DNA of 64,000 nt from assembly GCF_003018235.1 (NCBI RefSeq), contig NZ_CP027438.1; one strand, 5' to 3'. Shown one piece after another: positions 22,442 to 26,820 of the stretch. Numbering within the stretch: the stretch's first letter is position 1; each line of letters starts with the position of its first letter. Source of the stretch: Escherichia coli. GTDB taxonomy: Bacteria > Pseudomonadota > Gammaproteobacteria > Enterobacterales > Enterobacteriaceae. The notes below the pieces were generated by a model, which was not told the DNA's origin, made no database searches, and saw nothing but the letters and a program-made list of their open reading frames with translations. A program made the translations under genes and the position numbers.

Positions 22442-24586
22442 TTAATCAACGCCCCCCTTGTATTTATTATCGCCAGATAATGAAATCTCCTTAACTCTCC
22501 CTCCCTCAATATTTATGATCTTGTCAGTTGCACTAAGTACATCATCTTTATGGCTCACAATAATCTTAGTACAATCAAGAGACAATATTACCTGATTAAT
22601 TTCATATTCTGACTCTGCATCAAGATTACTGGTTGCTTCATCAAGTATTAATAACTTTGGTTTCCTGAATAAAGCTCTGGCTAACAGGATTTTCTGCTTC
22701 TGCCCTGCAGATAAAATATTTCCGGCATCATTGACAGGAGTGAAATACCCCATAGGAAGCCTTTCTATTATATCATGGATGCCAATTTTTTTTGTTAGTT
22801 CCAATAACTCAGGGGAGGGTGTCGAGTCATTGAATGTTATATTATAGATTATTGTTCCATTTAAAAGAATATCACCCTGTAAAACAGTGCCGGACACACT
22901 TCTGATATCTTCTATTTTATTGTTTTTGTCACCATCTGTAAAGATAATATGACCACCACTCAATTCTACCAACCCCAAAATAGCATAAAGAAGAGATGTC
23001 TTTCCCCCTCCAGATTTGCCTCTGAGAAGAACTGTCTCCCCAGGGTATATTTTTAGGTTAACGTCAGTTAAAACATTAACTTCTCTGCCATGATATTTCA
23101 TACTCAAATTAACGCACTCAATACCAACTGCTCCATGAGTATCTTTCCCGGATAAAGTGAAAGGTATCTTCTCATAATCTGCATCAGATATATCTGAAAC
23201 TCTTGAAATATGTATGCGAATAACACCAAGCTGGATAAAGAAATCAATCATGTTAGTCACCCTTCTGCTGAACTGTTCTGAATATGCAATAAAAGCGACA
23301 AGCATACCAATAGTAAAGGATGAATTAATCACAAACAGTCCGCCAAAGTAAAGTATTGAGATATTTTTTACCGCCGAAAGGAGATTACTTGATGATGAGA
23401 GCACAATATTTAATAAATCCATTTTTGTCTTTATGTTGATCCCTTCGATAAGGCTATTTTCATAAATACCTGCCGTTGTGTATTCCTGAAAGTAAAGCTT
23501 TATTGTTTGATTGTATTTGATTGACTCAATTAGTGCACTCTGTTGTCGGGCCTTAACTCTTATAGTGCCCAGATTCAGATATTTCAGAGACGAAAAATAA
23601 AAAACCTTCAGTAAAAAATATAGCAACGATGAAAAGAACACAACAAACGTTAACACAGGGCTATAAGAACACATTATAATGAAGGCCCCTATAGCCATAA
23701 AGAAATCCAACAAAACTTTTGTTAGCTGAGATATAACCACATTACGGATATATTCGAGAGAATTAACTCTGGATAAGATATCGCCAACACTCCTGGATGA
23801 AAAATATTTCATTCTTAATGATATTAGACGATTATAAGCATTTGTTGCCCACTGAACGCTTATGTTTGCATTTAACCAAATAATAAGCCAGTCCCTTGTC
23901 GCCAGTATACCAATACTAACAGCATTAAGAAAAAGATAAAATATCACTGCGGTAACCAATAACTGATAGTCATCATTAACAATGACATTATCAATAACCA
24001 GTTGAGTTATTTGCGGTATCGTAATATTGATAAGTTCAGCTAGAAAAATAAGAATAAACAGGCAGAAAAAAACATTTTTTCCTAAAAAAAACACACTGAG
24101 AATGTAATTATATATTGTTTTATTTCTTTTCTTGTCCTTTCTTAGCTGGTAAAATATTGAACCGTCATTGTATACTTCTATTCCTACTCCGGTAAAAGAC
24201 TCACTGATTTTCTGCAGCGACAAAACCTGAATGCCTTTATCCGGATCATGAACAACATACTTATTTCTCTTTCTTTTTACCAGAACAACAAAATGATTCA
24301 TATTCCAGTGAAGGATGCAAGGTAAACTTAAGCAGTTAAGCTCGTCAATGTTCAGACTGACAGCTCTTGGCATAATCCCCAAAGAACGTAATACTGATAC
24401 GATATCACTTACAGCCCACTCGTTTTTTTTGCTACTTAGTTTATCAAGCACATTCTCCAACAATCCCTCTTTCCCGTAATAACAAGCAAGCATTCTTATA
24501 CATGTCAAAGCACAGTCTGAATTTTCATTCTGAAAATAAAAAGGAAATGCTCTTTTCACTTTAAAATTTAACTTATCAATAATCAT
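22442..24586 (-). CDS. peptidase-C39-containing ABC exporter (CvaB/MchF-like)
   Basis: 714 aa; N-terminal C39 domain (QNENSDCALTCIRMLACYYG), 6-TM core, C-terminal NBD (GKSGGGKTSL, LSAGQKQKILLARAL, ILDEATSNLD). Confidence 0.8.
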   Translation of the reverse strand: MIIDKLNFKVKRAFPFYFQNENSDCALTCIRMLACYYGKEGLLENVLDKLSSKKNEWAVSDIVSVLRSLGIMPRAVSLNIDELNCLSLPCILHWNMNHFVVLVKRKRNKYVVHDPDKGIQVLSLQKISESFTGVGIEVYNDGSIFYQLRKDKKRNKTIYNYILSVFFLGKNVFFCLFILIFLAELINITIPQITQLVIDNVIVNDDYQLLVTAVIFYLFLNAVSIGILATRDWLIIWLNANISVQWATNAYNRLISLRMKYFSSRSVGDILSRVNSLEYIRNVVISQLTKVLLDFFMAIGAFIIMCSYSPVLTFVVFFSSLLYFLLKVFYFSSLKYLNLGTIRVKARQQSALIESIKYNQTIKLYFQEYTTAGIYENSLIEGINIKTKMDLLNIVLSSSSNLLSAVKNISILYFGGLFVINSSFTIGMLVAFIAYSEQFSRRVTNMIDFFIQLGVIRIHISRVSDISDADYEKIPFTLSGKDTHGAVGIECVNLSMKYHGREVNVLTDVNLKIYPGETVLLRGKSGGGKTSLLYAILGLVELSGGHIIFTDGDKNNKIEDIRSVSGTVLQGDILLNGTIIYNITFNDSTPSPELLELTKKIGIHDIIERLPMGYFTPVNDAGNILSAGQKQKILLARALFRKPKLLILDEATSNLDAESEYEINQVILSLDCTKIIVSHKDDVLSATDKIINIEGGRVKEISLSGDNKYKGGVD

Positions 24587-25866
24587 TTAAATGTAATACC
24601 TGTATCATTTTCAAACAATGATGAATATAGCCATTTGATCAGAGGACGAGTCTCTAATGGCACATCTGCCTTAAATGTCATATTAGAAATCAATTTTAAA
24701 TCCCTGTAATTTCTATCAATCTCTGCAATAGCAACATATGACGGGACATCTGTCTTAATGTTATAGTTATAATAAACACTATCTGGACTCAATGGCGTAT
24801 TTGAGATACTTCTTATTGCTCCATAAATAACACCAAAGCGTTGATAAGGATATGAATCAATATGTAGTGTCACCTTACTGTTAAGTTTCACTCTACCTAT
24901 AACATCAGGAGAAATGAACATTATCGCCTGATAGACGGCGTTATCAGGAATAATAGACATTATATACTCTCCATCCTTGGCTTGAGCTCCATTCTTTTTT
25001 GTAATTGATGTTACAACACCCTGTACAGGGGATTTTTGTATATACTCATACTTTTCTGCATTATTATAATATTGTATTAAATCATTAATTTTATTTTCGT
25101 TATAGTTATTATTCGTAGATAAAATTTTGCTTTCAATATCAGATTTCTGTAATTTTAACTCCATAACCTTTCTTGTTGTCTCGTCAATTTCTCTCTCGAC
25201 AGACGTTCTCTGGAGCAACTTTTCCAAAAGCTGTGATTCTGCATTATTTTTATCAACTATAGTGACCACCTTATTCTTGTAAGCTTCATTTATTTTTCTA
25301 TATGCCGAGCTATTTATTTCTATTGCGCGCTCTATCATATTCTTATCATTTTTTGCTTTTTTTATGCTATCTTCTTCTTTTCGTATTTGCATGTCAATTG
25401 ATGAAAGCTGTTTTTTATAGTTATTAACTTCATTTTTATTTTCCTTGCTGATAGATGCAATTCGCTCTTTCAGAAGAAGTGAGTATATATACTCACTATT
25501 TTCAAACTTACTATTTGAATTGCTGGAGCTTATATTAAAAAGAACATCACCTTTTTTTACTTTGCCCCCCTCCATTACCGCAAGGTTTTCAACCACCCCA
25601 TTTCTGTCGCTTCTTATGGCGAATGTCCCTTGCTCTGGGAAAATAACACCTGTAACACGTTTTCTCTGAGTATACTTTGCAAAAACAAATAAGACTGCCA
25701 GGAGGAAAACTATCATTGCATATACACATACAGCTCGCTTTATCTTAATATTATCAGGAATGAAAACATCCCCAAGAAAATTCTTTTTTATATTTCTATA
25801 AATTTCCATAATCGCAACATCATCTAAATAATAAATTATTTTGATAAGATATAAATCCCATGCCAA
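24583..25866 (-). CDS. HlyD-family membrane fusion protein (CvaA/MchE-like)
   Basis: 427 aa; N-terminal TM anchor, long coiled-coil region, C-terminal beta domain; overlaps ABC gene start. Confidence 0.75.
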   Translation of the reverse strand: MAWDLYLIKIIYYLDDVAIMEIYRNIKKNFLGDVFIPDNIKIKRAVCVYAMIVFLLAVLFVFAKYTQRKRVTGVIFPEQGTFAIRSDRNGVVENLAVMEGGKVKKGDVLFNISSSNSNSKFENSEYIYSLLLKERIASISKENKNEVNNYKKQLSSIDMQIRKEEDSIKKAKNDKNMIERAIEINSSAYRKINEAYKNKVVTIVDKNNAESQLLEKLLQRTSVEREIDETTRKVMELKLQKSDIESKILSTNNNYNENKINDLIQYYNNAEKYEYIQKSPVQGVVTSITKKNGAQAKDGEYIMSIIPDNAVYQAIMFISPDVIGRVKLNSKVTLHIDSYPYQRFGVIYGAIRSISNTPLSPDSVYYNYNIKTDVPSYVAIAEIDRNYRDLKLISNMTFKADVPLETRPLIKWLYSSLFENDTGITFK

Positions 25867-26244
25867 GACAACACATTATATTAGAGGACCCTTTAACTTA
25901 TTATAATATGGATAATAGAGACGATTAAAAATCTGAATTCATGGGCCTAAAGAGCAAGTTGCCAGAAATTTAACAATACTTACACCAATAGTAATCAGCA
26001 CTTAATCAGAAAAACTAATAAAGTATAACTGGCTGCATTTACTACCGTGAAGTTCTGACTATAGAACCGTTGAGACTAAATGTATTTTTAAATTCTGTGT
26101 TAAACTTCCCCCATTACAATCCCGTTACATCTCATCTCCGAAAATAAAACTCAGCCTGACACTAATTTCATCATGGATGTCTGATACAGAGAATTTCGTC
26201 GGCTTCCGTGCCCCCTACAACAATAAAAGATGACTGTAAGTAAA

Positions 26245-26820
26245 TCAACCTACAATAAATTTCCCTTCAGTTACACTATAGTGATATGCCCCATCACGAG
26301 TACTGTTTTTAATTGACTCAAGTGCATTCTTAGCTGTTGTTGCGTCTGAAGAATAAATATTCTTAGAGTCCTGTTCCATTATATAGCTATAAAATTTATG
26401 AGTATCCGGATCCTTTAAATCATCTGCCGTTACCGCCCCATATTCAGGGCTTCCGCCAAGAGCCTCAAACTTATGTTCTAACGGATTGTAATAAACACGC
26501 CCATCATTCTGTAATGTATGAATGCAGTCCTCTCGCTCGCTATCAGATACTTTGTCACTCCCTGTGTGTGTCTGCAACTCATGCATATAGCTATTAGCGA
26601 TATCAGCGTCTATATGGAGTATATCTCCATCCGTTGTATATTTAGAGACTGCGGTTCCATCTTTATGTTCAAATGCCCCCAGAGCCTCAGCTAAAGATAC
26701 AGCACCTTCTGAAGCATGAGTTGCTTCAACCATGCCCTCTATGATGGTCTCAAGAGCCTCGCCCAAACCAACGCCACCACCATAAATACAATTACATTCA
26801 TTAAACGTTAATTTTCTCAT
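26245..26820 (-). CDS. double-glycine-leader secreted protein (candidate cargo of the adjacent exporter)
   Basis: 191 aa; N-terminus MRKLTFNECNCIYGG-GVGLGE... fits the double-glycine leader pattern (compare colicin V MRTLTLNELDSVSGG); mature part about 176 aa, acidic, hydrophilic. Confidence 0.6.
   Translation of the reverse strand: MRKLTFNECNCIYGGGVGLGEALETIIEGMVEATHASEGAVSLAEALGAFEHKDGTAVSKYTTDGDILHIDADIANSYMHELQTHTGSDKVSDSEREDCIHTLQNDGRVYYNPLEHKFEALGGSPEYGAVTADDLKDPDTHKFYSYIMEQDSKNIYSSDATTAKNALESIKNSTRDGAYHYSVTEGKFIVG

Follow-up and report, generated by a model that had tools for sequence, protein, structure and literature searches.

The window analyzed here is a 64,000-nucleotide stretch of Escherichia coli DNA (contig NZ_CP027438.1), and this work concerns a block of three open reading frames (ORFs) on its minus strand, located at 26245–26820 (191 aa), 24583–25866 (427 aa, counted from a TTG codon) and 22442–24586 (714 aa). 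They encode, respectively, a protein of an uncharacterised family that we regard as the probable secreted substrate (hereafter the cargo), a periplasmic adaptor of the HlyD type, and an ABC transporter that contains a peptidase domain (PCAT). The cargo and adaptor genes are separated by 378 bp, or by 435 bp if the adaptor starts at an ATG, and the stop codon of the adaptor gene overlaps the start of the PCAT gene. The features of the block are listed below, each with the evidence used to place it.

26245..26820, minus strand: cargo gene, 191-aa precursor of an uncharacterised Enterobacteriaceae family (ORF list; homologues of about 190 aa; purifying selection)
26776..26820, minus strand: double-glycine leader, codons 1–15, MRKLTFNECNCIYGG (translation; fit to signal Motif 1; conservation in the family)
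26248..26775, minus strand: predicted mature protein, 176 aa (composition; invariant His residues)
26821..26902, minus strand: conserved 5′ region of the cargo gene, likely to hold a promoter and ribosome-binding site (blastn)
25810..26244, minus strand: AT-rich, non-conserved spacer between cargo and adaptor genes, with no credible ORF or known RNA (ORF scan, alignment, Rfam)
24583..25809, minus strand: periplasmic adaptor (membrane-fusion protein) of HlyD/CvaA type, with 408 aa when counted from the ATG (TIGR01843; RefSeq; homologue lengths)
22442..24586, minus strand: PCAT, 714 aa (PCAT1 structure match)
24167..24532, minus strand: C39 peptidase domain of the PCAT, residues 19–140 (alignment with PCAT1 catalytic positions)
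22487..23122, minus strand: nucleotide-binding domain of the PCAT (ATPase motifs)

The 714-aa protein aligned with PCAT1 structures over residues 11–700 (E = 7e-65), and its Gln19, Cys25, His98 and Asp114 fell on the catalytic positions of PCAT1. The C39 motifs are in register, namely QNENSDC (Gln19, Cys25), NHFVVL (His98) and VHDPDKG (Asp114), and the spacing of six residues from Gln to Cys and 16 from His to Asp agrees with that of ComA, where the catalytic residues are Gln11, Cys17, His96 and Asp112 (PMC8277102). The ATPase motifs are also present: Walker A GKSGGGKT (523), the signature LSAGQ (625), Walker B LLILDE (645) and the H-loop His (679). In all eight PCATs of the family that we examined the Cys/His/Asp triad and the ATPase motifs are retained, and the family PCATs bear the Pfam domains Peptidase_C39, ABC_membrane and ABC_tran. 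Judged by these residues, the C39 domain is of the active type, unlike the Cys-less C39-like domain of HlyB. An HlyB/RTX-type secretion system was rejected on the catalytic Cys25, the N-terminal position of the cargo leader, the lack of an RTX or any other Pfam domain in the cargo, and a TIGR01846 score of 302 against a cut-off of 726 bits. The exporter fell below every NCBIfam equivalog cut-off. Its best NCBIfam match was TIGR03796 (NHLP/Nif11 export ABC transporter), at 362.5 bits, far below the 853-bit cut-off; an NHLP/Nif11-type system was rejected on that score and on the cargo leader, which is 15 aa long and not an NHLP or Nif11 domain. The exporter is also only 31.6% identical to CvaB, and it represents a distinct clade of PCAT-type transporters.

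The adaptor matched TIGR01843 (type_I_hlyD) with E = 7.7e-31, below the curated cut-off, and is named by RefSeq as 'HlyD family efflux transporter periplasmic adaptor subunit'. Its longest ORF starts at TTG 25866 and gives 427 aa; the ATG at 25809 gives 408 aa and is the likely start because homologues in the family have 404–411 aa. In the closely related plasmid NZ_CP076711.1, two 2-bp deletions split the adaptor gene (window positions 24967–24996), and RefSeq annotates it there as two coding sequences, while the window copy is intact. This frameshift could be true decay or an error in the reference assembly.

The 191-aa protein begins with MRKLTFNECNCIYGG, which has Leu at −12, Glu at −8, Ile at −4 and Gly-Gly at −2/−1, and this layout corresponds to the published recognition pattern for C39 domains (PMC8277102). 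It also fits the expression M..Rx[IL]x9G[GAS] (Motif 1) with which Parker et al. searched for class II microcins, and eight of its 15 residues are identical to those of the microcin V (MccV) signal, MRTLTLNELDSVSGG, quoted in the same paper (PMC12219008). When Met-initiated ORFs of at least 30 aa in the six frames of the window were scanned with a relaxed form of this expression, the 191-aa ORF was the only one to match. Across 18 homologues Leu4 and Gly14 are invariant and Glu8 is nearly so, with Leu(−12), Glu(−8), Ile(−4) and Gly(−2) conserved; the leaders of a Salmonella branch are textbook-like (MRKLTAQELNTIAGA, MRKLSHEEMNSVAGA and MKKLTSMELDLIAGS). By these comparisons the leader match is not due to chance, and the predicted cleavage falls after Gly14-Gly15. 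A second tandem double-glycine signal, as in microcin PDI (MccPDI), was considered and rejected as the pattern after Gly15 does not fit. An earlier description made from the letters of the stretch (the sequence-only reading) had proposed a C39 peptidase fused to an ABC exporter, a HlyD-family adaptor ahead of it in the CvaAB layout, and a 191-aa ORF with a double-glycine leader. All three proposals stand, and the Cys and His of the C39 domain, on whose presence the first of them had been made to depend, are found as Cys25 and His98.

A word-indexed search of 5.8 billion proteins with the cargo returned 15 clusters, all of about 190 aa and all from E. coli, Klebsiella, Yersinia or Salmonella; none of the 15 has a Pfam domain or an informative name. 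An exhaustive hidden Markov model search of 1.84 billion representatives gave eight matches, every one a family member or a fragment of one, and added one further full-length branch (Salmonella P0019 and P0023–P0025, 34–36% identical to the window protein). As far as these searches reach, the family is narrow and confined to Enterobacteriaceae. Its members are present in numerous publicly available assemblies of E. coli, Klebsiella and Salmonella, often on plasmids or islands, and full-text literature searches found no paper that describes it. We define it by full-length homology, four invariant His residues and neighbouring PCAT and adaptor genes, and the window protein has all of these.

In every locus read, the cargo gene adjoins adaptor and PCAT genes or their remnants, and the other neighbours are unrelated. 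The contexts were E. coli islands that carry SPATE and K88-type fimbrial genes, further E. coli contigs, large plasmids with Afa or cloacin genes, a Yersinia island beside K88-type fimbriae, and Salmonella loci. Two gene orders were observed: co-directional and, in the Salmonella P0019/P0025 branch, divergent, with the adaptor–PCAT pair opposed to the cargo gene; the association therefore outlasts a rearrangement. At the DNA level the window resembles the Klebsiella-type loci (L007–L010) in 26902–26257 and 25805–22542 only, which comprise the three genes and about 80 bp upstream of the cargo gene, where the similarity ends at 26902.

Several observations were made at these loci in passing. The module was repeatedly found near adhesin or virulence loci in unrelated backgrounds (L003, L015, L007–L010 and L024), with K88-type fimbriae in E. 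coli and Yersinia, AfaD and an usher, a SPATE autotransporter, a two-partner secretion (TPS)/ShlB pair and colicin genes among the neighbours; this proximity may reflect merely a shared residence in mobile islands. In Yersinia enterocolitica JBKOOZ010000006.1 (L015), 9.4 perfect tandem copies of the octamer TAGGTAAA occupy positions 7924–7998 and end 2 nt before the ATG of the cargo homologue, an arrangement that could allow on/off switching of expression (phase variation). On the Klebsiella-type plasmid of L008 an IS1 element interrupts the adaptor gene (9626–10323), and in Salmonella L011 only three fragments of the adaptor remain (5780–6630) and there is no PCAT; the cargo gene of this locus is intact. 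Orphan cargo genes thus outlive exporter loss.

The three genes are under purifying selection across the family, and they differ in rate. Between the window and the distant loci of E. coli, Yersinia and Salmonella (P0013), identity is 52–57% for the cargo, 40–43% for the PCAT and 31–32% for the adaptor. Nonsynonymous divergence (dN) between the window and L007 is 0.146, 0.211 and 0.239 for cargo, PCAT and adaptor, and between L003 and L015 it is 0.131, 0.27 and 0.365; the cargo had the lowest dN of the three genes in six out of six pairs tested. The ratio of nonsynonymous to synonymous divergence (dN/dS) of the cargo was about 0.09 where dS could be estimated. These low values demonstrate that the cargo gene is real and strongly constrained. 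In class II microcins the cores are very divergent and share very little identity (PMC10233263); here the reverse is seen, with the cargo more conserved than its exporter. Outside the window's own clade, the nearest PCATs are those of the Salmonella cargo branch (36% identity), and because this branch belongs to the same cargo family the result indicates that cargo and exporter have diverged together.

It could be argued that the 191-aa ORF is not the cargo at all, that its adjacency is incidental and that the exporter serves another, unrecognised small peptide, since its size is beyond the limits stated for the transporter class. However, no other ORF of the window has a microcin-type signal, and the 191-aa ORF is linked to the exporter in four genera and two gene orders and co-diverges with it; moreover, the spacer, the sole room for another gene, is either non-conserved or just 38–50 bp long. 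We regard this alternative as most improbable. With good confidence, the 191-aa protein can be taken as the substrate that the module would cleave and export.

The predicted mature protein has 176 aa, 19.1 kDa, an isoelectric point of 4.6, a grand average of hydropathicity of −0.55, one Cys, and no transmembrane or hydrophobic segment, which agrees with the large, acidic and hydrophilic product of about 176 aa expected by the sequence-only reading. All members of the family are likewise acidic and hydrophilic, with 0–1 Cys and no transmembrane segment, a chemistry that is compatible with export. His35, His80, His85 and His180 are invariant, and His makes up 3–10% of the residues. In the Salmonella branch an internal tandem duplication of about 60 aa was detected (47% identity, E = 1e-19). 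The predicted architecture, for which the pattern of secondary structure was taken from AlphaFold2 models of low confidence, consists of the leader, a conserved Gly/Ala-rich helical segment (GVGxGEAL...EAxHAxEG) and then two helix-helix-hairpin modules, of which the second appears to have diverged in the E. coli branch. Profile searches with the cargo gave no match in Pfam, NCBIfam or the PDB sequence profile (E up to 10), and only chance-level hits in PADLOC and PHROGs; a clear homologue among cytoplasmic enzymes, which would have spoken against a secreted product, was looked for in Pfam, NCBIfam and the PDB profile and none was found.

Class II microcin systems have five parts, among them an adjacent membrane immunity protein of 51–216 aa (PMC10233263, PMC9746304). 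We searched 25810–26250 and 26815–27320 for short ORFs and found nothing immunity-like; the small ORFs there are short and not conserved. The cargo–adaptor spacer of the window holds only ORFs of up to 28 aa, and no alignment with its counterpart in L007 or L019 is possible; at the P0011-type, Yersinia and Salmonella P0013 loci the spacer measures only 38–50 bp. No conserved fourth gene was found in any related locus examined (about eight independent contexts and both gene orders), and neither the upstream nor the downstream flanks are conserved between contexts. By contrast, a related Klebsiella plasmid PCAT (33% identity) has an adjacent CAAX-type immunity-like gene.

Individual candidates for an immunity gene were also rejected. 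A 48-aa ORF at 26853–26999 overlaps the region of the promoter, and most of it falls beyond the conserved DNA. A 20-aa hydrophobic ORF at 25939–26001 and the 34- and 85-aa ORFs of the L007 spacer belong to spacers between which no alignment is possible. Neighbours of 239 aa at L003 and L021 are unrelated. At L011 the Salmonella P0019 cargo gene has directly downstream of it a 271-aa multi-transmembrane ORF (7516–8331) that matches nothing in Pfam or NCBIfam, and an Rce1/CPBP-like gene lies about 5 kb away. This 271-aa ORF is the sole immunity-like neighbour observed in the whole family. It was seen in L011–L014 only, where the exporter is degraded, and was set aside as it has no counterpart in the window or in other loci. 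The absence of an adjacent immunity ORF, proposed in the sequence-only reading for the window, holds in every related context examined.

These data bear on the possibility that the cargo is a large microcin-like bacteriocin for which immunity is unneeded (because the producer lacks the receptor or target), unlinked, or provided by a gene too small or unusual to be recognised. The leader, the PCAT and the adaptor are those of class II microcin systems, and nearly all characterised Enterobacteriaceae cargo of this type is antibacterial (PMC10233263, PMC12219008); bacteroidetocins are antibacterial double-glycine cargo that can lack an immunity gene (PMC10233263). The 271-aa ORF of the Salmonella variant and the cloacin or colicin genes beside some loci point the same way, as does a stretch 'ETIIE/DTVIE' nine residues into the mature protein, which by eye resembles a TonB box and is absent in one clade. 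On the other side, no immunity candidate is conserved and the 271-aa ORF is limited to four loci with degraded exporters; the cargo is more conserved than the exporter, the opposite of class II microcins; the mature protein is acidic and hydrophilic and has no Gly-rich or hydrophobic region such as membrane-active microcins have; and its 176 aa compare with cores of 60–90 aa. We consider a bacteriocin of this kind, harmless to its producer, less likely but a serious alternative. The choice offered by the sequence-only reading, between a large bacteriocin-like protein and a non-bacteriocin effector, is kept, with the evidence leaning away from a classical self-toxic microcin because conservation of the cargo exceeds that of the exporter and neither gene order includes an immunity gene. 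Together with the lack of a membrane-active region, these points indicate that the cargo is probably not such a microcin.

The GC content of the three-gene block is 0.345, and that of its flanks is 0.486 and 0.521. Just downstream of the exporter gene, Rfam located sok (22160–22317) and CopA (21269–21356); upstream of the cargo gene there are an IS3-type orfA fragment (27309–27614), a truncated nuclease gene (27573–27803) and finO. The module is flanked by hok/sok and RepFIIA on one side and by the IS3 fragment on the other, as described in the sequence-only reading, where the block was called AT-rich and placed between the RepFIIA control region with hok and an insertion sequence (IS) fragment. 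A search for direct or inverted repeats bounding the module found none. The window is of the same lineage as NZ_CP076711.1, an IncF plasmid of E. coli O158:H23 (identity 99.4–99.8%). The exact block is carried by 2 of 72,556 PLSDB plasmids and by 2 of 5,426 complete E. coli genomes, and both RefSeq records that carry it label the 191-aa product 'hypothetical protein'.

Ahead of the cargo ATG, at a distance of 8 nt, there is an AGGA, and a Shine-Dalgarno sequence is conserved at this place. A promoter-like site was noted at 26942–26915; the promoter and terminator scans did no better than shuffled expectation. Comparison of the regions upstream of cargo genes, which are too divergent, revealed no operator in common, and inspection by eye showed no Fur box. 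No Rfam family was found inside the module, including the spacer.

Could the module of the window be an evolutionary remnant, intact in sequence but neither expressed nor functional, for instance as AT-rich foreign DNA silenced by H-NS? Its low GC content, the disrupted adaptor genes of close relatives, the rarity of the exact block among plasmids and the want of a convincing promoter above shuffled expectation would all fit. However, none of the three ORFs is disrupted in the window, each of the genes is under purifying selection in the family, no family PCAT examined has lost its catalytic or ATPase motifs, and the Shine-Dalgarno sequence ahead of the cargo ATG is conserved. Such a remnant is in our view improbable.

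Overall, we favour, with moderate confidence, the reading that the three genes form a self-contained and apparently intact module for type I secretion, of the kind found in class II microcin systems (CvaAB type), which was acquired horizontally and serves an oversized cargo that is not a classical self-toxic microcin. In such a scheme the 191-aa precursor would be made in the cytoplasm and its 15-residue leader would dock on the C39 domain of the exporter, where Cys25, His98 and Asp114 would cut after Gly14-Gly15. The resulting acidic and almost Cys-free 176-aa protein of 19.1 kDa would be threaded through the exporter, the HlyD-type adaptor and, presumably, chromosomal TolC into the medium. 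The module itself would have arrived by horizontal transfer and been inserted between hok/sok and the IS3 fragment on an IncF plasmid. Its cargo more likely acts outside the cell through a constrained function, in binding or in catalysis, and the four invariant His residues faintly suggest that this function may depend on a metal or another ligand. As a working hypothesis, these residues and the acidic, Cys-free composition would be compatible with a metal- or ligand-binding extracellular protein, or with an enzyme.

A number of points weigh against this interpretation. A cargo of 176 aa lies outside the tested behaviour of active-C39 PCATs: these are stated in reviews to carry cargo of up to about 10 kDa (PMC8277102), and in the MccV system, the best studied, efficiency declines beyond about 100 residues and secretion falls sharply at 116 aa (PMC10231218). 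In the clade P0008–P0014 the residue at −1 is Cys, Tyr or Asn, not Gly, Ala or Ser, and the cleavage site or the protease specificity is thus not fully canonical there. AlphaFold2 models were of low confidence (predicted local distance difference test scores of 47 and 57) and fold searches returned family members alone, so that the function proposed for the mature protein is without homology or fold support. Finally, the module is decaying in relatives (the frameshift of NZ_CP076711.1, the IS1 of L008, the adaptor fragments of L011 without a PCAT), which could mean weak selection.

The favoured reading can be extended, as a tentative proposal only, to an unrecognised class of Enterobacteriaceae substrates: folded-domain proteins of about 19 kDa that would be exported by active-C39 PCATs via a 15-aa leader, have no immunity gene and play a non-microcin role, for example as secreted metal- or ligand-binding proteins or as host or colonisation factors. 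Published class II microcin screens discard ORFs longer than 150 aa (PMC12219008, PMC9746304), and the cargo family has therefore previously gone unnoticed. This ceiling excludes the family by design, and if the proposal of a new class is true a whole category has been missed. In its native setting the 176-residue cargo shows strict linkage to its exporter, and four genera conserve it. Should it really be exported, the limit of about 10 kDa is not general, and the system would provide a natural scaffold with which Gram-negative bacteria could secrete mid-sized proteins in one step. Whether the cargo serves competition, the handling of metals or interaction with a host is a tractable question.

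Elsewhere in the window, a gene for a RelE/ParE toxin (95 aa) and one for a Phd/YefM antitoxin lie just past the RepFIIA replicon (18829–19418), in agreement with the annotation of NZ_CP076711.1. Two IS21-family (IS100-like) copies are present at 10081–11882 and 55509–57311 in opposite orientation, and their istA products have identical NCBIfam scores; they could mediate inversion of the intervening 44 kb or so, including the module. At 27893–28000, adjoining finO and the truncated nuclease ORF, Rfam reported 'AS-pc02' (RNA antisense to pHK01_099) with 80.8 bits, the match being truncated at the end of the stretch searched.

When the module is compared with known systems, three features described for class II microcins (PMC10233263) are present: a signal of 15–18 aa ending in GG, GA or GS, a C39 PCAT with its triad, and a membrane fusion protein beside the PCAT. 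An adjacent inner-membrane immunity protein of 51–216 aa and a core of about 5–10 kDa are not. Class II cores measure 60–90 aa (5–10 kDa) and their precursors 75–120 aa (PMC10233263, PMC9746304). With the microcin V system (CvaC, Cvi, CvaA, CvaB, TolC) the module shares a 15-aa double-glycine leader, a Cys/His/Asp PCAT, a HlyD-type adaptor and a plasmid location. It differs in the low identity of its PCAT to CvaB, in the absence of a Cvi-like immunity gene, and in a cargo that has no sequence similarity to CvaC and is 176 aa long, acidic and hydrophilic, whereas MccV has 88 aa and is Gly-rich and hydrophobic. Microcin S and microcin PDI also combine a plasmid-borne PCAT and adaptor with a double-glycine cargo in E. 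coli, and they have the largest verified class II precursors (120 aa) and immunity proteins of up to 216 aa (PMC9746304). Unlike these, the present module has no linked CAAX/CPBP or other membrane protein, and its cargo exceeds the largest verified precursor in length by about 60%. Bacteroidetocins resemble it in that they have a double-glycine leader, depend on a nearby PCAT and lack an immunity gene (PMC10233263, PMC12219008). Unlike it, they are shorter than 100 aa, have divergent leaders and come from another phylum (Bacteroidetes), and no sequence relationship was found.

Xanthomonas RaxX, handled by RaxB and RaxA, is a non-antibiotic double-glycine cargo of a PCAT and needs a sulfotransferase. 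The cyanobacterial EbfG biofilm proteins are non-antibiotic PCAT cargo with a double-glycine leader as well (PMC4997328). Both provide precedents for a non-bactericidal role, in which the leader is cut by the PCAT, the product is exported and no immunity gene is needed; unlike the present cargo, they are small peptides or proteins, and they have no homology to its family. HasA-type hemophores are acidic proteins of about 19 kDa with conserved His/Tyr ligands that are secreted in one step by a type I system of ABC exporter, adaptor and TolC-like protein. HasA has an uncleaved C-terminal signal, an exporter with no peptidase domain, and a cognate outer-membrane receptor gene, none of which is present here; Pfam and PDB profile searches detected no sequence similarity of the cargo to HasA, and it serves as an analogy for a possible ligand- or metal-binding role. 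Seen against these systems, the type of mechanism is already known, and what is new is a microcin-type PCAT and adaptor module with no immunity gene and with an oversized cargo of a novel family, about twice the accepted size limit of such exporters.

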